The notes under the pieces: model-generated
What the model saw: only the letters and a program-made list of their open reading frames with translations
What the model was told of the DNA's origin: nothing
Database searches by the model: none
In this document: positions 12,152 through 27,024 of the stretch, in pieces
Layout of the letters: each line of letters starts with the position of its first letter
Numbering within the stretch: the first letter of the stretch is position 1
Position numbers and translations under genes: made by a program
DNA from: a virus
Direction: 5' to 3' (one strand)
Virus genome (UHGV): UHGV-0071970
DNA length: 40,192 nucleotides

Positions 12152-12322
12152 ATGAACGACATCAGGAGGATCAGCGACAAAGAGCTTACGAAAATGATTG
12201 AGTCGGCGCAGCAGCTGCTTTCACGACGAAATCCGGTTGTGGAAGAAACATGGTGGGAAAATTTACTGGCAGCACTGACCGAACTCCGCGAACGCCGGAA
12301 CAACGAAGGAGCCGCCAAATGA
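12152..12322 (+). CDS. Hypothetical small protein (56 aa)
   Basis: ATG at 12152 with strong SD AAGGAG; the track ORF starts further upstream at 12113. Confidence 0.4.
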   Translation: MNDIRRISDKELTKMIESAQQLLSRRNPVVEETWWENLLAALTELRERRNNEGAAK

Positions 12323-12657
12323 AGACACCCAGAATGACCGGAAAGGTAATCATTTTACGCTACCTGGAAACGCACGCACGCTTCAGCGCACCAGAGCTGG
12401 TTGAAAAACTGGGCGTGAAAAGGACCATCATTAATCAGGCCGCCGGAAAGATGGTACGCGAAGGGCTGCTGGTTGTGGACGGGTACACGGACAAGATAAC
12501 GCATTACCGGAAGCCAACGGAAAAGGAACGACTGGAGCTGGAGCGGCGGGCTGAACAGCAACAAAAGCCGTCCGTAATCCAGGACTGCAAGCGAAGCGAA
12601 ATCATGAAGCGAATTCTGTTTATCTACGGCGCTGGCGAAGAGCTGCCAGTCATCTAA
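12319..12657 (+). CDS. Putative winged-helix DNA-binding protein (112 aa)
   Basis: ATGA overlap with the previous ORF; LRYLETHARFSAPELVEKLGVKRTIINQAAGKMVREGLLVV looks like an HTH followed by a wing. Confidence 0.45.
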   Translation: MKTPRMTGKVIILRYLETHARFSAPELVEKLGVKRTIINQAAGKMVREGLLVVDGYTDKITHYRKPTEKERLELERRAEQQQKPSVIQDCKRSEIMKRILFIYGAGEELPVI

Positions 12658-12689: not shown

Positions 12690-13007
12690 ATGCCAACACA
12701 GGTTGCAACAGAGGGACGACTGGCAGCAGACCCGAACACAAGGAGAACAACCAAAGGAACCAACGTCACAACGGCACAACTGGCGGTATCACTACCCTGC
12801 CATGGCGCAGAACAGCCAACCACAATGTGGCTTTACCTTATTGCATTCGGGAAGCAGCACGAAGAACCGGCAAAACACAGAAAAGGCGATCTGATTCTGG
12901 TGCACGGAAACTTGCAGGTAAACAGGTATCAGGACAAGTACGGGCAACAGAAAGAGGGCTGGCAGTTGCTGGCGCAAAGCATTATCAGCTCAAGAACCGG
13001 GCGATGA
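12690..13007 (+). CDS. SSB-like OB-fold protein (105 aa)
   Basis: Residue pattern G-L..DP....KG....A.LAV ... W....AFGK.AE ... KGD.I.V.G.L....Y.DK.G.Q follows the single-strand-binding protein fold pattern; SD GGGAGA. Confidence 0.45.
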   Translation: MPTQVATEGRLAADPNTRRTTKGTNVTTAQLAVSLPCHGAEQPTTMWLYLIAFGKQHEEPAKHRKGDLILVHGNLQVNRYQDKYGQQKEGWQLLAQSIISSRTGR

Positions 13008-13056: not shown

Positions 13057-13602
13057 TCAGTCAAACCGAAATCGGCCGCTTGTCGCGTATGCATAGGTGA
13101 CCACCGCACCCAGCGCATTCACACGCTTCTTCACATAAATCACATTACCATCCTGATAGTCACCGTATGGGTAGCAAATAAAGATTGTTTTTTGCAAATC
13201 AGGATCATCAACAAATGCCCCTGAACAACTTTTTGAGCTACCGCGACTGTACTCATAGGGAGCGGAATAGAATGAATCTTCACCCGGAAGAAAATATATC
13301 AGCGTAACCAGGAGGGTAAACAGAATCATCCAGGTAAGAAGGCACATACCCGAAAAAAACTTAAGATACGATGTAACCCCGGTAAATTTAGACCGATCAA
13401 CCAGGTTCTTTTTCAACAGGCACAGTGAGACAAAAACCGAAAGCACCACAGACACTGAAACAAGGCAGTTTGTCGTGAACGAATAAAGGTAGGTAATTCT
13501 GTAAACATCGTTTCGCCACCAAATAAAAAGAAAAATCCCCCCCAAAACAGAAAGCGTGACAAAAGTTAAATAAGGATATGAGTAATTTTTCACAGTTCTC
13601 AC
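13057..13602 (-). CDS. Multi-pass membrane protein (about 182 aa) of the accessory cassette
   Basis: Probable GTG start at 13602 with SD GGGAGA; the track ORF extends to 13764 over the promoter motif. Three hydrophobic helices plus a C-terminal soluble domain; AT-rich. Confidence 0.5.
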   Translation of the reverse strand: MRTVKNYSYPYLTFVTLSVLGGIFLFIWWRNDVYRITYLYSFTTNCLVSVSVVLSVFVSLCLLKKNLVDRSKFTGVTSYLKFFSGMCLLTWMILFTLLVTLIYFLPGEDSFYSAPYEYSRGSSKSCSGAFVDDPDLQKTIFICYPYGDYQDGNVIYVKKRVNALGAVVTYAYATSGRFRFD

Positions 13603-13673
13603 CCGGCAGTCTCCCACTGATTCAGACAGATGAATATCATCACCACTTGCCACAAAAAATCGCAAGATCAAAA

Positions 13674-13712
13674 CTGCACAAAAGCGCACGAAATTGCACA
13701 ATTTTTCTAATG
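13674..13712. promoter_or_regulatory. Conserved 39-bp promoter-proximal element, copy A (upstream of membrane gene)
   Basis: CTGCACAAAAGCGCACGAAATTGCACAATTTTTCTAATG; 30/39 identical to the element at 16602-16640; contains three GTGCA/GTGCG repeats at about 10-11 bp spacing. Confidence 0.5.
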
Positions 13713-13932
13713 TACTTTTTCCCCATTCCGCCCGGTAACGGCGCTGGCTGAGGCCGGTTTGCACGGTGCACGAAAAACGAGGCGAGTAGTGGATGGGTAA
13801 AAATTAATAATAAGTATAAGCAATGTCGATAAACCAAGACACAACAAGTATTCAACACAATTAATCATGCACGTGCAAATAGCAATAACATTAACACATT
13901 ATTTATATAAAAAACAATCTGATATTATTTCG

Positions 13933-13963
13933 GTTGTGGGCTTGGTATTTTCAAACCCACAAC
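13933..13963 (-). terminator. Possible terminator hairpin downstream of the three-gene operon
   Basis: GTTGTGGG-N15-CCCACAAC; a U-rich run follows only after a gap on the minus strand, so weak. Confidence 0.3.
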
Positions 13964-13997
13964 AATAATATTATTTCGAGATATTAAACATAGACAA

Positions 13998-14789
13998 TCA
14001 CCCTATTTTTCTATGCATTTTCATGAGTTCCCTTATTAAGCTAGCATGAAAGATTGATACATCAGAAATCCTTGTATCAATAGATGAATCAATATTATCA
14101 GAAACCTTTTGCTCAAATAAATCGCAGATACCATCAAGTGACTCAATATCTTTTTCCAACTTAGAAAAACCCTTAAATAGATATAATGAATCCCTTAACT
14201 CCCCAAGCTTTGAAAATAGTTGGCTATCTAGTAATGATATAAATTCATCAGAGGGAAGCCCCATCGCATCCTTAAAATCTTCCGTAACTTCAAAAGCTAA
14301 TCCATTAATTTTAGGGAGAATAACTTCTCGTAACCAATACCCTTCGTTTATAGCTTCATTTCTTCCTTTATAATGCTGCCACAAAGGAACCCCTACAGAT
14401 GCAATTAGCGCAATAATTGAAATTGCTATAGAGTACCATTCAGGTCCTGATTCAGGAACTCTAACGATATTATAGAGATTCCCCGATGAGGTTGAGGGGT
14501 AATATCCATTCAGAACATAATTATCAGGTTTATCATAAAGAAGGTGCGGTGTAAACTTCCTTTCATAACTATTGCATAATTTTAGATCGCTATTTTTTCC
14601 AATGCATATATCAGCATTAAAAATGTTTCCACTCTTTGGTTCTATTACGTGAGACTCTGAATTTTGCGAATCCATGTTAGACGCGGTTCTTTCTAGATAT
14701 GTCGCAGAGCAAGCGGATATATTAACAAAAAAAATGACAGGCAATGCTGTCATTTTAAAAACAGAGCACAAATCAGAAGAACGGAACAT
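13998..14789 (-). CDS. Predicted lipoprotein/membrane protein (263 aa), cassette gene 3
   Basis: N-terminus MFRSSDLCSVFKMTALPVIFFVNISAC looks like a signal peptide with lipobox ISAC; internal TM WYSIAISIIALIASVGVPLW; acidic C-terminal domain. Start overlaps the upstream gene by 17 bp. Confidence 0.5.
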   Translation of the reverse strand: MFRSSDLCSVFKMTALPVIFFVNISACSATYLERTASNMDSQNSESHVIEPKSGNIFNADICIGKNSDLKLCNSYERKFTPHLLYDKPDNYVLNGYYPSTSSGNLYNIVRVPESGPEWYSIAISIIALIASVGVPLWQHYKGRNEAINEGYWLREVILPKINGLAFEVTEDFKDAMGLPSDEFISLLDSQLFSKLGELRDSLYLFKGFSKLEKDIESLDGICDLFEQKVSDNIDSSIDTRISDVSIFHASLIRELMKMHRKIG

Positions 14790-15117
14790 TTCGATGTAAT
14801 CCTCTTCTCACAGCCCTATCCAGCTCAGAAAGCATTCCTTCTTTATAATTCACTCCATCTAAAGATGTTCTGCTATAAAATTCATTCGGAGATGAAAAAA
14901 GAGGCAATATATTCTCTAGCATACCCAAAAAGTATGAGCTTGACACAACCACACCATTCGGAATTGATAGAAAAATCCTATCATTGTTATCAAAAGTAAA
15001 GCGATCTATGCCAAAGAAACTATATGCCTTGCGACCATTATCACGCCCAGCAAATAATTTCTTGCCGCCATCTTTAACTAATTTATTGAAATCTATATAA
15101 ATATTTGCCATTTTCAT
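14773..15117 (-). CDS. STAS-like (DUF4325-type) small protein, cassette gene 2
   Basis: Core RIFLSIPNGVVVSSSYFLGML fits the STAS-like DUF4325 pattern as I recall it; SD GAGGAA; coupled to the upstream ATPase gene. Confidence 0.45.
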   Translation of the reverse strand: MKMANIYIDFNKLVKDGGKKLFAGRDNGRKAYSFFGIDRFTFDNNDRIFLSIPNGVVVSSSYFLGMLENILPLFSSPNEFYSRTSLDGVNYKEGMLSELDRAVRRGLHRNVPFF

Positions 15118-15128
15118 TTACCTATTCC

Positions 15129-16505
15129 TCAGGTTCTTTGAGTTGCATTTTCCGGTAAAGGAAAACGTATATTAATCATAACTCCCGGAAAACGGGCTTT
15201 CTGCATACACTTAAGATAGGTACGATCTGGTTCAGATTCAAGCCCTGTATTATTAAATGGATAAGTGAATTTGTCACTTTGGTTATCTAACGTTTGCTTT
15301 TTCAACTTATAAGAACCATCAAAGTTTATATGTGTGCATCCAGAAATTAAAGACATTCTGATGTTTCCACTTAGTTCTTTGGATAGTTCTTTTAAACTAT
15401 CATGCATATCCTGGAAAAACTTCAATAGCTCAATGGTTCCCGTACCAGAACTATCTGTCTCCGTTTCATTTTTACAACTAACCCGCCCCTGCAAAGCAGC
15501 GACTGTAATCAAACCTTCTCTAAACATCCCTTTTTTATTTATGTGTTTTTCCACATAAGGGATTATGTGATTGTTATATGAATAATGTTCTAAAGAAAGT
15601 CCTGAAAAAGTTTCATCAATAGTTTTTCCAAAGTTAAAAACAGCTATTTCACATGTTGGCTGTTTTAAGCCATTATTTACAAACCCCCTCAAATACCAAC
15701 GCGGACGCTGCTCAAGCCCACAATGTCTCTCTGCATTATCAAGTAATTCGCCCATGCAAGATGTTAGATGGTTTTCTGCCTTGCTAACTAATTTTAATTG
15801 ATGATCACTTAGACACTCGTTTATATAATTAGTGAATTTCTCAGACATTCTATTTTTGGTATCTTGTGCAAATGCAGACGCATTTTCCTTGCCGATACTA
15901 TCAGCAGAGAATATTCTTTTCTTAGGGTTATCTTTTTTCGATTTTTCTGTTTCATCATGCACCTTCCCTGGCGTCACTTTATTTATTTCTTTAACCAACC
16001 CGATGTCACGAATAATTTCTAAATATTTTTCATCCTTCGGATAAATGCCATTAAGTTGTACTTGAGCATCTTTTAAATTTATATTGTGACGTTTGGCTGA
16101 GCTCAGTGCAACACCAAGGAGACATTCCGCACCTAAACAATGCTTTTTATTTTTAGTATAATCAAGCAAATATGATTTACGTTTACCCCTGGCAATCAAT
16201 CTAGTTACACCATGAATAAACAAAAGAGATTTTTCTGGATGATCAAACAAATCGAAACATTTAGGTATTATTACTCTATCTTCTTTGCGACGAAGAGTTG
16301 CAGTATCATATTTCTTTACGGATGAAATACTTTCAATAAAAGTAGCCACCTGACTTTTCACTGGTGTTACTTCGTCAGAAAAATGTAACCTTTCATAGGC
16401 TTTATATTTAATTCTTCTTTTATTTTTTCTCTCAACGCCTTTTAAAAAGCGAATCCAACCACGTAAAAAGCGTTTTCTTGCATCCTTTTTATCTATTTTT
16501 TTCAC
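15129..16505 (-). CDS. GHKL-superfamily ATPase, anti-sigma-factor-kinase-like, with about 240-aa basic N-terminal extension; cassette gene 1
   Basis: N-box-like GELLDNAERH and G-rich lid DSSGTGTIELL in the C-terminal half; GTG start at 16505 with SD AAGG; strongly AT-rich. Confidence 0.5.
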   Translation of the reverse strand: MKKIDKKDARKRFLRGWIRFLKGVERKNKRRIKYKAYERLHFSDEVTPVKSQVATFIESISSVKKYDTATLRRKEDRVIIPKCFDLFDHPEKSLLFIHGVTRLIARGKRKSYLLDYTKNKKHCLGAECLLGVALSSAKRHNINLKDAQVQLNGIYPKDEKYLEIIRDIGLVKEINKVTPGKVHDETEKSKKDNPKKRIFSADSIGKENASAFAQDTKNRMSEKFTNYINECLSDHQLKLVSKAENHLTSCMGELLDNAERHCGLEQRPRWYLRGFVNNGLKQPTCEIAVFNFGKTIDETFSGLSLEHYSYNNHIIPYVEKHINKKGMFREGLITVAALQGRVSCKNETETDSSGTGTIELLKFFQDMHDSLKELSKELSGNIRMSLISGCTHINFDGSYKLKKQTLDNQSDKFTYPFNNTGLESEPDRTYLKCMQKARFPGVMINIRFPLPENATQRT

Positions 16506-16547
16506 TATTCACCTTACTTAACAAACATCTATACTACTTCGTTGCAA

Positions 16548-16575
16548 AGTATACATATCACTTGCTAATACACAA
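16548..16575 (-). promoter_or_regulatory. Candidate sigma70 promoter of the cassette operon (TTGTGT-N16-TATACT on the minus strand)
   Basis: Hexamers read on the minus strand about 45 bp upstream of the GTG start, just downstream of the repeat motif. Confidence 0.3.
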
Positions 16576-16601
16576 TATGGCTTCGAGATAATCCGCAGCA
16601 T

Positions 16602-16640
16602 CTGCACAATAGTGCACAAATTTGCATAATTTTTTTGAAC
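16602..16640. promoter_or_regulatory. Conserved 39-bp promoter-proximal element, copy B (upstream of ATPase operon)
   Basis: CTGCACAATAGTGCACAAATTTGCATAATTTTTTTGAAC; see copy A. Confidence 0.5.
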
Positions 16641-16725
16641 GACTTTTTGCCCTTCCGGCCCGCGTGGCGGCTGGATCCGTCAAGGATCCGTGCGTGCACA
16701 AAAAAACACGCTTTTTCTGCGCGCA

Positions 16726-24440: not shown

Positions 24441-24871
24441 AAACACCTGCCGTGTTGCTCTGGTTTCTTGCCACCCTGTTGCTTTGTGGCCTGACAGGCT
24501 GGGAAGCATACCGCAAAGGGAAGGAAAGTCTCGGACGGGAACAGATGATGGACATCATAGAGGACAACCGCGCCGCCATGCAGGAAGTTCGCCATGCATA
24601 CACAGACTTTTCCAGGGTGATAAACGTGATCCGCATTCTGGACCAGCAACGGATTGCAGAAGGAGAGCAACGACGTGAAGAAATGCAAAAAGACGCGCAG
24701 GGTGACACGTGTGCCAGCGCTTATCCTCCCGCTGCTGTTACTGAGCGGTTGCAGCAACACGCAGCACACATTGAAAACCAGACTCGTTTACGAGCCGGTG
24801 CCGACAGTTCTGACAAGGCAGACCCCGGTTCCGGCACTGGAAATACCCGTGACATGGTACAGGGTGACTGA
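24437..24871 (+). CDS. Rz-like inner-membrane spanin (LysB)
   Basis: N-terminal TM then a charged coiled region; position after the endolysin. Confidence 0.6.
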   Translation: MKTPAVLLWFLATLLLCGLTGWEAYRKGKESLGREQMMDIIEDNRAAMQEVRHAYTDFSRVINVIRILDQQRIAEGEQRREEMQKDAQGDTCASAYPPAAVTERLQQHAAHIENQTRLRAGADSSDKADPGSGTGNTRDMVQGD

Positions 24872-24986
24872 ATGGAGCGATCGGCTACTGGAAGCACTCG
24901 ACACATGCAACGCAGACAAGGCTGCGATCGCCTGGCTGGATAAACAAAGAGCAGAGCGGGCGCAAGATGCGCCCCATCAGGAGTAA
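24675..24986 (+). CDS. Rz1-like outer-membrane lipoprotein spanin (LysC), overlapping LysB in another frame
   Basis: Lipobox LLLLSGC followed by a proline-rich segment; GTG start at 24675 with SD AGGAGA. Confidence 0.5.
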   Translation: MKKCKKTRRVTRVPALILPLLLLSGCSNTQHTLKTRLVYEPVPTVLTRQTPVPALEIPVTWYRVTEWSDRLLEALDTCNADKAAIAWLDKQRAERAQDAPHQE

Positions 24987-24989
24987 ACG

Positions 24990-26960
24990 ATGAGCAAAAA
25001 ACACTTTGAACTGATTACTGCCACCAACCGCGCAGAATTCGCTGAAAAAGTTAACAAGCGATTACAGGAAGGCTGGGAACTTCTCGGTAATGCCGGTATT
25101 GCATCAGAGCCGGGAGTCCCCTGGTATCTCATGCAGGCTATGGTTTCAGGCAGTGATGACCAGGGAGGCACCATTATCACCCCGACATCCGACAGCGAAC
25201 CGGAGTGGTATTACGTTGTGGTGAGCGCTGGTCAGTCCAACTCTATGGCATACGGTGAGGGGTTACCTCTCCCGGACAGTTACGATAAACCCGATTCGCG
25301 CATTCGCCAGCTGGCACGCCGCAGCACCGTAACCCCGAGCGGAAAAGCCTGTGCCTATAACGACATCATTCTGGCGGATCACTGCCTGCATGACGTGCAG
25401 GATATGAGCCAGTACAACCACCCGAAAGCCGACCTGAACAAAGGTCAGTATGGCTGTGTGAGTCAGGGATTGCACATTGCGAAGCGCCTGCTGCCATTTA
25501 TCCCGGCAAATGCGGGGATCCTTCTGGTCCCATGCAGCCGTGGCGGTTCCGGCTTTACAACCGGTGATGCGGGGCAATTCAGCGAGATCGGCGGCGCAAC
25601 TGAAAAATCCTGCCGCTGGGGAACGAACACGCCGCTGTACAAGGATTTAATCAGCCGCACAAAAGCAGCGCTGGCGAAAAATCCGAAAAACGTCCTGCTG
25701 GCCGTCTGCTGGACACAGGGCGAGGCAGATCTTGAGAAAGAACAAAACGCCGCACAGCATAAAGATCTTTTCACAGCCATGGTGAAGCAGTTCCGGGCTG
25801 ACCTGGCCGATGTTGCGAAGCAGTGCAACCAGGGCAACCCTGAAAGCGTGCCGTGGATTTGTGGAGATACCACCTACCACTGGAAAAAAACCTACGAAGC
25901 ACAGTACGCAACCGTGTATGGCGGATACAAAAACAGCACTGAGAAGAATATTGTTTTTGTGCCTTTTGTTACGGATGAGTACGGGAAAAACACCCCAACA
26001 AACGAGCCGACAGAAGATCCGGATATTGCGGAAGCGGGTTATTACGGTGCCGCATCCCGCAGTAGCGGAAACTGGGTAAGCCATCTGCGTGGAACGCACT
26101 TCAGCTCATGGGCCCGCCGGGGCATTATTGCCGATCGCATGGCGTCAGCAATCCTGCTTAACGTCGGCCGCACGCTGCCATTTATTGCGGGTACAGAGCC
26201 GGAACGCGTGGCAAAACCATCACAGGATGCACCGGGCGGCATCAGTAAGCCATCTTCACCGGAAGCAGAACAACCGGCAGTCAGACCGGGGCCGGTCACG
26301 CTCATGAGTCTGCTGGCATCATCTCCTGAACTGGAAAGCCAGGGCTGGACGCTGAGCGAAGGCAAAAACGGGGCCAACACACCAAAACAACTGAAAGACA
26401 CGCTGATCGGTGATGAGGAAGCAACAGGGAAAAAAGCCCTGAAACTGACCAAACAGGAAGGCAATACCTGGTATCTGGAGCATAAGGCCGGTAATGGTGC
26501 TGACCTTCTGAAAAATGGCGGGACTGTAAGTTGCCGATTCAAAATCGAGGGTGAGCTGAAAAAAGACCAGTACGCAATGGCGATGTACTGGAAAACATCA
26601 GCATTACCGCAGGATGTGAAATTACTGGGGGCAGATCCAAATAATTTATTGCTCTCATTCTTTCTTCAGACAGACAGCGCAAACCTGAATCTGATGTATC
26701 ACAAAACGCCAAACGAACAACTGGGAACCTTTGGTCAGTTCAATAACAACTGGCACACCATAGCGTTTCGTTTTGCGGGAAACAACAGCACCCAGGTAAC
26801 ACCGGTTCTGGATGGCGTGGACGGAAAACCGTTCATGCTTTCCACATCAAAAGCCGATGTTACCAACGACACGTTACGCGTGACCGATATCACGTATCGG
26901 CCGACCTATACCGTACTGATTGACAGCCTGAGCGTTGTCGTAAATCAGCCACCGGCATAA
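24990..26960 (+). CDS. NanS-p-like carbohydrate O-acetylesterase: DUF1737-like N-domain + SGNH/SASA esterase + C-terminal beta-rich domain
   Basis: N-terminus ...FAEKVNKRLQEGWELLGNAGIASEPGVPWYLMQAMV fits the DUF1737 pattern; catalytic-serine block VVVSAGQSNSMAYGEG (GQSN). Architecture is as I recall for prophage NanS-p esterases. Confidence 0.65.
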   Translation: MSKKHFELITATNRAEFAEKVNKRLQEGWELLGNAGIASEPGVPWYLMQAMVSGSDDQGGTIITPTSDSEPEWYYVVVSAGQSNSMAYGEGLPLPDSYDKPDSRIRQLARRSTVTPSGKACAYNDIILADHCLHDVQDMSQYNHPKADLNKGQYGCVSQGLHIAKRLLPFIPANAGILLVPCSRGGSGFTTGDAGQFSEIGGATEKSCRWGTNTPLYKDLISRTKAALAKNPKNVLLAVCWTQGEADLEKEQNAAQHKDLFTAMVKQFRADLADVAKQCNQGNPESVPWICGDTTYHWKKTYEAQYATVYGGYKNSTEKNIVFVPFVTDEYGKNTPTNEPTEDPDIAEAGYYGAASRSSGNWVSHLRGTHFSSWARRGIIADRMASAILLNVGRTLPFIAGTEPERVAKPSQDAPGGISKPSSPEAEQPAVRPGPVTLMSLLASSPELESQGWTLSEGKNGANTPKQLKDTLIGDEEATGKKALKLTKQEGNTWYLEHKAGNGADLLKNGGTVSCRFKIEGELKKDQYAMAMYWKTSALPQDVKLLGADPNNLLLSFFLQTDSANLNLMYHKTPNEQLGTFGQFNNNWHTIAFRFAGNNSTQVTPVLDGVDGKPFMLSTSKADVTNDTLRVTDITYRPTYTVLIDSLSVVVNQPPA

Positions 26961-27024
26961 CAATGCTTCCCAGCCATCCGGCGGGGAAGCTCGCTGACAA
27001 CCGGGAAAATAAAAGGAGCAAGCC

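Follow-up and report, generated by a model that had tools for sequence, protein, structure and literature searches.

The window analysed here is the whole of UHGV virus genome UHGV-0071970, a stretch of 40,192 nucleotides that constitutes a complete P2-like prophage integrated beside dmsA (E. coli S1-CAM-02-A). On its minus strand lie four adjacent open reading frames (ORFs), g1 to g4, each labelled hypothetical protein in RefSeq. A preliminary description had taken the four for a single AT-rich accessory cassette encoding a GHKL-kinase-like ATPase, a STAS-like partner and two membrane proteins. All four ORFs are indeed present where it placed them. They are flanked by gpA, three small ORFs and the SSB gene on one side and by portal and terminase genes on the other, which confirms the proposed position, and the locus is the P2 gpA-gpQ defence hotspot as defined by Rousset et al. 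2022. The number of genes, however, had to be revised. The unit that moves comprises g1, g2 and g3, which we call K, S and T, and these three genes form one conserved, strictly linked system.

A mobile unit in the gpA-gpQ hotspot

The cassette (13787..16717, no strand assigned) is ~2.93 kb long and is set between g4 and the cos/portal side. Its GC content is 0.347, compared with 0.435 for g4 and with 0.527 and 0.547 for the remaining prophage, in agreement with the AT-richness first noted.

Its limits can be read from other prophages. When 5,426 complete E. coli genomes were searched by megablast, the match split at query base 785, which corresponds to ~13785 in the window. In E. coli SE11 and in seven further genomes gpA is followed directly by g1-g3, and both g4 and the SSB block are missing. 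Conversely, many other prophages, for example that of strain G1/2, have the SSB gene and g4 adjoining the portal gene, without g1-g3. Because of the megablast break and these two arrangements, we treat g1-g3 as the mobile unit and g4 as separate from it. Sharp junctions at ~13786/13787 and 16717/16718 emerge when the region is aligned with SE11 (L002) and with a prophage that lacks the cassette (L003). The cassette moves as a unit into the defence hotspot.

A 12-nt repeat, GTGCACRAAAAA, marks the two edges (left copy 13766..13777, right copy 16694..16705, both on the plus strand). The window holds exactly these two copies, one per cassette edge, against a chance expectation of 0.08, and the empty site of strain G1/2 contains just one. 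This repeat may be the microhomology used in swapping the cassette in.

The same cassette had already been catalogued at the same gpA-gpQ position, as system #19 of Rousset et al. 2022 (Table S5B: HATPase_c/DUF4325, 155 occurrences, HHpred labels, with one transmembrane (TM) helix in protein 3). The representative of that system is the second E. coli allele, ~71% (K) and 75% (S) identical to the allele in the window, whose exact accessions, WP_000717775 and WP_000781372, are given in Table S5A of the same paper. Both E. coli alleles are located in the gpA-gpQ hotspot.

K, S and T are tightly packed. K (458 aa; 15129..16505, minus strand) begins with a GTG, and an AAGGTG Shine-Dalgarno sequence lies 5 nt before it. 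SE11 has an identical copy of the region upstream of the operon (16506..16705, minus strand), which is therefore counted as part of the mobile unit. A sigma-70 consensus scan upstream of K on the minus strand found no strong or convincing promoter. The ATG of S (114 aa; 14773..15117, minus strand) stands 11 nt past the K stop codon, behind a GAGGAA Shine-Dalgarno sequence, and that of T (263 aa; 13998..14789, minus strand) stands 17 nt inside S, behind GAGGA. The coupling of g2 to g1 and the 17-nt overlap of g3 with g2, both part of the preliminary description, are thus visible in the gap and overlap themselves.

Three structures resemble terminators. A hairpin followed by a T-run (16706..16724, minus strand) stands at the right junction, where it is downstream of the portal/terminase operon, and probably insulates the cassette from late transcription. 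An inverted repeat with an 8-bp stem, GTTGTGGG/CCCACAAC, lies inside the mobile unit 35 nt past the T stop codon (13932..13963, no strand assigned) and is a possible operon terminator; this assignment is tentative because no T-run is next to it on the minus strand. The third, a hairpin with a 10-bp stem and a T-run (14731-14756, minus strand), falls over the signal-peptide codons in the 5' coding part of T and could be chance or an internal attenuator.

The three proteins

Two recently characterised systems provide the reference points for K and S (Chambers et al., EMBO J 2026; PMC13373217). CapK is an HTH-STAS-GHKL kinase (HTH, helix-turn-helix) that single-stranded DNA (ssDNA) activates and that phosphorylates CapS, a repressor with STAS and winged HTH (wHTH) domains, on S54. 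VapKSC consists of VapK (STAS-GHKL), VapS (a 116-aa STAS protein) and the PIN toxin VapC; the phosphomimetic VapS S48E fails to neutralise VapC, and the operon protects against phage Bas42. In both CapK and VapK, sensing is located in the STAS-GHKL groove. That paper mentions neither membrane partners nor DUF4325; an older survey describes a VapC clade coupled to DUF4325 genes. For the comparisons below, the VapK and VapS sequences were taken from the AlphaFold 3 (AF3) model file of PMC13373217.

K belongs to the anti-sigma serine-kinase branch of the GHKL proteins, and its kinase activity is predicted. The protein opens with a strongly basic helix (residues 1-45; 16371..16505, minus strand), evident from the charge count (18 K+R, 6 D+E) and from the AlphaFold2 (AF2) model, which has one long basic helix within residues 1-60 (helix 6-36). 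An internal STAS-like domain follows at residues ~70-200 (15906..16298, minus strand; limits approximate), and then a SpoIIAB/RsbW-like, Bergerat-fold kinase domain at residues ~215-450 (15156..15863, minus strand). The long basic N-terminal extension ascribed to g1 is therefore correct as far as the helix goes, but a whole STAS domain had gone unnoticed within it.

The assignment of g1 as GHKL-kinase-like is supported. K has the Bergerat alpha/beta ATP-binding fold, and its best structural match is SpoIIAB, an anti-sigma factor that binds both a sigma factor and a STAS antagonist. The motifs ELLDNAERH and DSSGTGT are present. We recognise an N-box (E253/N257/H261), a G1-like NFG (N291-G293) and a G2 box (G354-x-G356), and six of these residues (E253, N257, H261, G293, G354 and G356) do not vary in any of the 46 non-redundant homologues. 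Model searches with K gave no match in Pfam (E<=1), NCBIfam or PADLOC, and a PDB sequence-profile search returned noise only. The 56 homologue clusters of K are all annotated hypothetical, with no precomputed Pfam HATPase_c.

The apparent position of the STAS phospho-serine in the STAS domain of K is taken by an aliphatic residue, L124, so that this domain is probably not itself a substrate. By eye, L124 is also the equivalent of the ssDNA-sensing aromatic residue (F54 in VapK, W68 in CapK), in a region that neither hhalign nor hidden Markov models (HMMs) aligned; it is aliphatic in 45 of the 46 homologues. We regard K as a cytoplasmic sensor kinase, with the internal STAS domain packed against the SpoIIAB-like GHKL domain.

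Sequence comparison supports the placement of S in the DUF4325/STAS-like superfamily, as a divergent member and a likely kinase substrate. The route to this placement is indirect. Neither S nor 36 members of its family (at E<=10) matched PF14213 or the STAS models of Pfam. A search of 1.84 billion proteins with the S profile retrieved 107 distant relatives at E<=1e-3, and, of 70 of these that were scanned, four hit PF14213 (DUF4325, "STAS-like"), the best at E 3.7e-8. VapS matches the same model at 2.7e-17 and the S relative P0205 at 7.9e-6. The HHpred label in the catalogue of Rousset et al. agrees with this chain of matches. More direct comparisons were not confirmatory: the best Foldseek E-value for the S model was 0.67, the best hit of a PDB profile search was the STAS protein TM1081 (E 0.33), and hhalign found no match between S and the internal STAS region of K. 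The STAS/DUF4325 label proposed for g2 thus holds through intermediates, and not through a direct Pfam match or a fold search.

The AF2 model of S (pLDDT, the predicted local distance difference test score, 90) includes a helix at residues 60-67. S60 and S61 stand at its start, the position of the phospho-serine in SpoIIAA, CapS and VapS. The codons for S59-S60-S61 (14935..14943, minus strand) specify a candidate phospho-acceptor loop at the N-terminus of this second long helix. S61 is the sole invariant serine (45 of 45 non-redundant homologues), and S60 is kept in 35 of the 45.

T has a lipoprotein-type signal, one TM helix and a conserved helical cytoplasmic domain. The lipobox ISAC (residues 24-27) and the TM helix (118-136) vindicate the earlier view of g3 as lipoprotein-like with a single membrane span. 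Between them lies a periplasmic segment of ~90 residues, and after the helix come a basic stretch, a juxtamembrane motif and a helical cytoplasmic tail of ~110 residues. The family alignment defines the motif as (A/S)I-x-(D/E)-x-(F/Y)-W-x-R-x-V-I-x-P. In the window it reads AINEGYWLREVILP; W152 is invariant in the family, and TM helix, basic stretch and motif together span residues 118-159 (14313..14438, minus strand). TM helix, motif and cytoplasmic tail are retained across the family, whereas the exported part is variable or absent; several members lack the periplasmic segment altogether (for example those of L009, L022, L027 and L030). T matched no model in Pfam, NCBIfam or PADLOC. Its family profile gave helical-bundle and His-tag noise only against PDB and Pfam. 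A PIN domain was sought in the T family without a significant match, one member reaching PIN_8 at E 0.039.

Purifying selection acts on K, S and T alike. The ratio of non-synonymous to synonymous substitution rates (dN/dS), taken between the two E. coli alleles (~72% DNA identity), is 0.07 in K, 0.08 in S and 0.22 in T. On these values of 0.07-0.22 we rejected the reading of the cassette as decaying or non-functional cargo. The divergence of T is concentrated in its periplasmic part, where the two alleles have an identity of 0.27, compared with 0.57 for the TM and cytoplasmic part.

These features of T invite two readings in which its exported part is central. In the first, T would be an envelope sensor, signalling DNA injection or membrane perturbation to K and S, and the kinase would be the effector, phosphorylating phage or host proteins; alternatively, S, either free or phosphorylated, would act on an unlinked target. 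An exported, fast-evolving segment in enterobacterial T proteins (27% against 57% identity, and a T dN/dS above those of K and S) would suit a surface in contact with phage, and T has no recognisable toxin motif. However, the segment is not conserved and is absent in several members, the conserved core of T being the TM helix and cytoplasmic domain, and sensing in CapK and VapK takes place in the kinase itself. SpoIIAB-type kinases are, moreover, highly specific for their STAS substrate, which argues against K acting on other proteins. We judge a sensor role for T to be quite unlikely.

In the second reading, T would exclude superinfecting phages without cell death, its lipoprotein form blocking receptor use or DNA injection from the periplasm, while K and S tuned its activity or stability. 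Prophage lipoproteins that exclude superinfecting phages are well known, T5 Llp among them, and the T protein of the window does have a lipobox and a ~90-residue periplasmic segment. Yet it is the periplasmic part that varies or is missing in the family, whereas the cytoplasmic domain is never missing, nor are K and S, and a constitutive blocker needs no cytoplasmic kinase switch. We consider such an exclusion system very improbable.

Linkage and genomic settings

We assembled 59 loci from E. coli genomes, one-genome-per-species contigs, IMG/VR viral contigs, metagenome assemblies and plasmids. S directly follows K in 59 of 59. A T-family HMM detected the third gene in 47; in the other 12, the gene after S encodes a protein of 167-283 aa with an N-proximal hydrophobic stretch followed by a long helical tail (the stretch was called by a 19-residue hydropathy scan in eight and by eye in four). 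No PIN domain or other effector was seen in third position in any of the 59. On this strict linkage, K, S and T are one conserved three-gene system.

The system is widespread. Its hosts include Enterobacterales, Aeromonas, Vibrio, Idiomarina, Pseudoalteromonas, Paraburkholderia, Undibacterium, Ensifer, Ciceribacter, Opitutaceae and a Bdellovibrio-like metagenome-assembled genome, a range that spans several phyla, from Enterobacterales to Alphaproteobacteria and Verrucomicrobia. Prophages, plasmids and islands all serve as carriers. Among the 5,426 complete E. coli genomes, 33 have the system, in each case on the chromosome. A tblastn search with K of 50,697 phage isolates gave no match.

Many of the settings outside E. 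coli are also suggestive of defence. In two unrelated metagenomic contexts K-S-T stands directly downstream of a type III restriction-modification (R-M) pair, a methylase and ResIII (L005/L006, 377-3397; L009, 373-4823). Elsewhere it is found beside integrases or in a lambdoid-type phage. Around 28 non-P2 loci, 101 neighbouring ORFs yielded PADLOC matches to REase_III, mad1/2/3/8, AriA/PbeA-like ATPases, PD-T4-3, dGTPase, AbiEi, DrmD, HmaA and PLD-helicase, and integrases occur among these neighbours too. The genes downstream of T differ in every context. Such a neighbourhood is guilt by association, counted per ORF, and we take it as suggestive. Of the models just named, the MADS-like mad1, mad2, mad3 and mad8 each match two to three of the 101 ORFs, among neighbours of L016-L038.

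Other settings point in another direction. The Providencia vermicola plasmid pZ34CR2292_colE10 (L012), mobilisable by MOBQ and only 6778 bp long, has K-S-T as essentially its sole cargo, which fits a toxin-antitoxin-like or addiction module. (The K gene of this plasmid appears to cross the origin of the record and is unannotated.) On a Vibrio plasmid K-S-T lies beside ParAB, and in an Aeromonas (L008) it sits on the chromosome with metabolic neighbours. P2 hotspots, too, carry partition systems and toxins as non-defence cargo (Rousset et al. 2022). The system could accordingly be a module for addiction or stabilisation, or a regulator that responds to stress; it would then benefit its carrier element and affect phages at most incidentally. 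The repeated association with R-M systems, other defence genes and phage defence hotspots makes this account, in our judgement, an unlikely one. The two roles are in any case not exclusive, because VapKSC is toxin-antitoxin-like and yet protects against phage.

The remaining gene of the original block, g4 (235 aa; 13057-13764, minus strand), is an independent membrane moron. Its four hydrophobic segments agree with the multi-TM protein first described, but its membership of the system does not survive: we rejected it on the megablast break, on SE11, which lacks g4, on G1/2, where g4 occurs without g1-g3, and on its homologues in lambdoid phages. Full-length homologues with 44% identity occur in the lambdoid phages 434, mEp332 and 2B8, where they are annotated as two ORFs, and in cassette-free prophages g4 travels with the SSB gene. 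A Pfam search with g4 gave sub-threshold noise only, and neither NCBIfam nor PADLOC produced a significant match to it. A PHROGs search with all four proteins of the region found unknown-function families only, the match of g4 being limited to its last 90 residues (phrog_1416).

The prophage is variable at other points as well. A MarR-family regulator (12250-12657) and a 105-aa SSB-like gene (12690-13007), both on the plus strand, lie between gpA and the hotspot. The SE11-type prophage has neither gene, so modularity extends to the region upstream of the hotspot. Two proteins annotated in RefSeq, one of 656 aa with DUF6645 and one with DUF1378, are encoded between the lysis and tail genes (~24777-26976); a dip in GC content to 0.47-0.48 at 26.5-27.5 kb overlaps this block, which may be a second cargo site of the prophage.

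A proposed phosphorylation-gated switch and its relatives

Our preferred reading is that K-S-T is prophage cargo of the VapKSC kind: a phosphorylation-gated toxin-antitoxin or abortive-infection system in which a membrane protein would be the effector. We give this a probability of about 45%. By analogy with VapKSC, in an uninfected cell unphosphorylated S would bind the cytoplasmic domain of T and keep T inactive. An infection cue, which is ssDNA for CapK and VapK, would activate K. K would then phosphorylate S on its serine loop, at S61 or S60, and phospho-S would release T. Free T is predicted to damage or depolarise the inner membrane, halting phage replication at the cell's cost. A phosphorylation-gated output had been suggested from the start, and the characterised CapK/CapS and VapKSC make it the most plausible logic for a kinase-STAS pair of this kind.

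The same components could also be wired as a classical partner switch. K would then hold the cytoplasmic domain of T, unphosphorylated S would displace K, and phosphorylation of S would reset the switch, an order inverted relative to VapKSC that still ends in a membrane effector. It is SpoIIAB, which binds both a sigma factor and a STAS antagonist, that K resembles most closely in structure, and the extra basic helix and insertions of K (458 aa, compared with 302 aa for VapK) could form a surface for binding T. Set against this, the cassette encodes no PP2C phosphatase to regenerate unphosphorylated S, and CapKS and VapKSC, the sole characterised relatives in a defence context, work the other way, with S bound to the output until phosphorylation frees it. 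We think a classical partner switch unlikely.

Several points weigh against the VapKSC-like reading that we prefer, beginning with the chemistry. At N291, the G1-box Asp position of K, 37 of the 46 homologues have Asn, eight Ser and one Cys, so that D-x-G-x-G is not matched and, with Asp replaced by Asn or Ser, the kinase activity of K is not guaranteed. The acceptor in S is ambiguous, as sequence alignments set VapS S48 on S60 and yet the invariant residue is S61. That S rather than K binds T is proposed purely by analogy. T has no recognisable toxin or pore motif or structural match, and it is cast as effector by elimination. Defence itself is read from context: system #19 is absent from the validated and tested constructs of Rousset et al. 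2022 and is catalogued only.

The statistical links to VapKSC are also marginal. No PADLOC, Pfam or NCBIfam model is matched by K, S or T. When the families were compared with single sequences by hhalign, the E-values (0.095 for K with VapK and 0.05-0.18 for S with VapS) were not significant. Broad HMMs gave P 0.005 for VapK and 0.0009 for VapS, but 4 of 500 shuffles reach each of these scores (empirical P ~0.01, marginal). A search of IMG/VR for VapK relatives from which to build a profile found none. The pieces that do align are co-linear: the two N-boxes coincide, as do the two serine loops, and the C-terminal F-x-G-T-I strand falls on its counterpart.

A more specific version of the VapKSC-like reading goes further, and we hold it with considerable doubt. 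In this version T would be a novel membrane-acting abortive-infection effector, latched by a phospho-switchable STAS-like antitoxin, and K would sense a cue other than ssDNA through its family-specific basic helix and an aliphatic STAS-GHKL interface. If this is true, kinase-STAS pairs would be a general and portable "sensor plus latch" that bacteria and phages attach to killing devices as different as a repressor, a nuclease and a membrane protein. If validated, a membrane-anchored effector would be a third output class beside transcription (CapKS) and a nuclease toxin (VapKSC), the sensor-latch pair would be a modular unit exchanged among defence systems, and the occupant that ranks 19th by frequency in the E. 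coli P2 defence hotspot would have a function.

How does the cassette relate to what is already known? Its architecture had been thought not to correspond to any recognised system. That view needs correction, because the cassette is catalogued as Rousset system #19 and the mechanism of kinase-STAS pairs appeared in print in 2026, for different outputs; "undescribed" is true only in the sense of unnamed and without experimental test. From the same P2 hotspot, Rst_3HP ("hp + hp + hp") likewise has three genes for hypothetical proteins, and Rousset et al. 2022 validated it as protecting against P1. We rejected identity with Rst_3HP because its proteins, of 332, 363 and 228 aa, are unrelated to K, S and T. 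A four-sequence blastp aligned Rst_3HP protein 1 (67-197) with K (311-422) at 28% identity over 141 aa, with an E of 0.042 that is not significant and probably reflects chance.

The SpoIIAB-SpoIIAA and RsbW-RsbV pairs differ from K-S-T in several respects. They are housekeeping systems, whereas K-S-T is phage and plasmid cargo with a membrane protein as third partner. K-S-T lacks both a sigma factor and a PP2C phosphatase, and a STAS domain is fused to its kinase.

In CapK-CapS a kinase containing STAS and GHKL domains is paired with a STAS-domain substrate that is phosphorylated on a conserved serine, a pairing that K and S would repeat. In 88 of 443 cases capK-capS is found downstream of R-M systems (PMC13373217), a placement like that of L005/L006 and L009. 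However, CapK has an N-terminal HTH and CapS a C-terminal wHTH that makes it a DNA-binding repressor, whereas K starts with a basic helix, S is a 114-aa protein without a DNA-binding domain, and neither K nor S has a Pfam match to an HTH. CapKS controls a downstream immune operon, and the K-S-T mobile unit ends after T. Transcriptional control of the CapKS type was therefore rejected, S having no DNA-binding domain and the cassette no downstream operon.

Among characterised systems VapKSC is the nearest analogue. Both are three-gene operons in the same order, and K, like VapK, joins a STAS domain to a GHKL kinase domain of the SpoIIAB kind. In both, the second protein is DUF4325/STAS-like, has ~115 aa and carries a conserved serine at a helix start; both are found near defence genes, and neither encodes a phosphatase. 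The differences lie in the kinase and above all in the third gene. VapK has 302 aa and K has 458, with the extra basic N-terminal helix and insertions. VapK keeps the G1 Asp (D190, in VVDFGVG), which is Asn or Ser in the K family, and the ssDNA-sensing aromatic residue of VapK (F54) and CapK (W68) has no securely alignable counterpart in K. Third in VapKSC is a PIN nuclease; third in all 59 K-S-T loci is a TM-anchored helical protein. The cassette thus stands outside VapKSC because it has no PIN toxin and outside CapKS because it has no DNA-binding domains, and by analogy its first two parts may work as their counterparts do in both.

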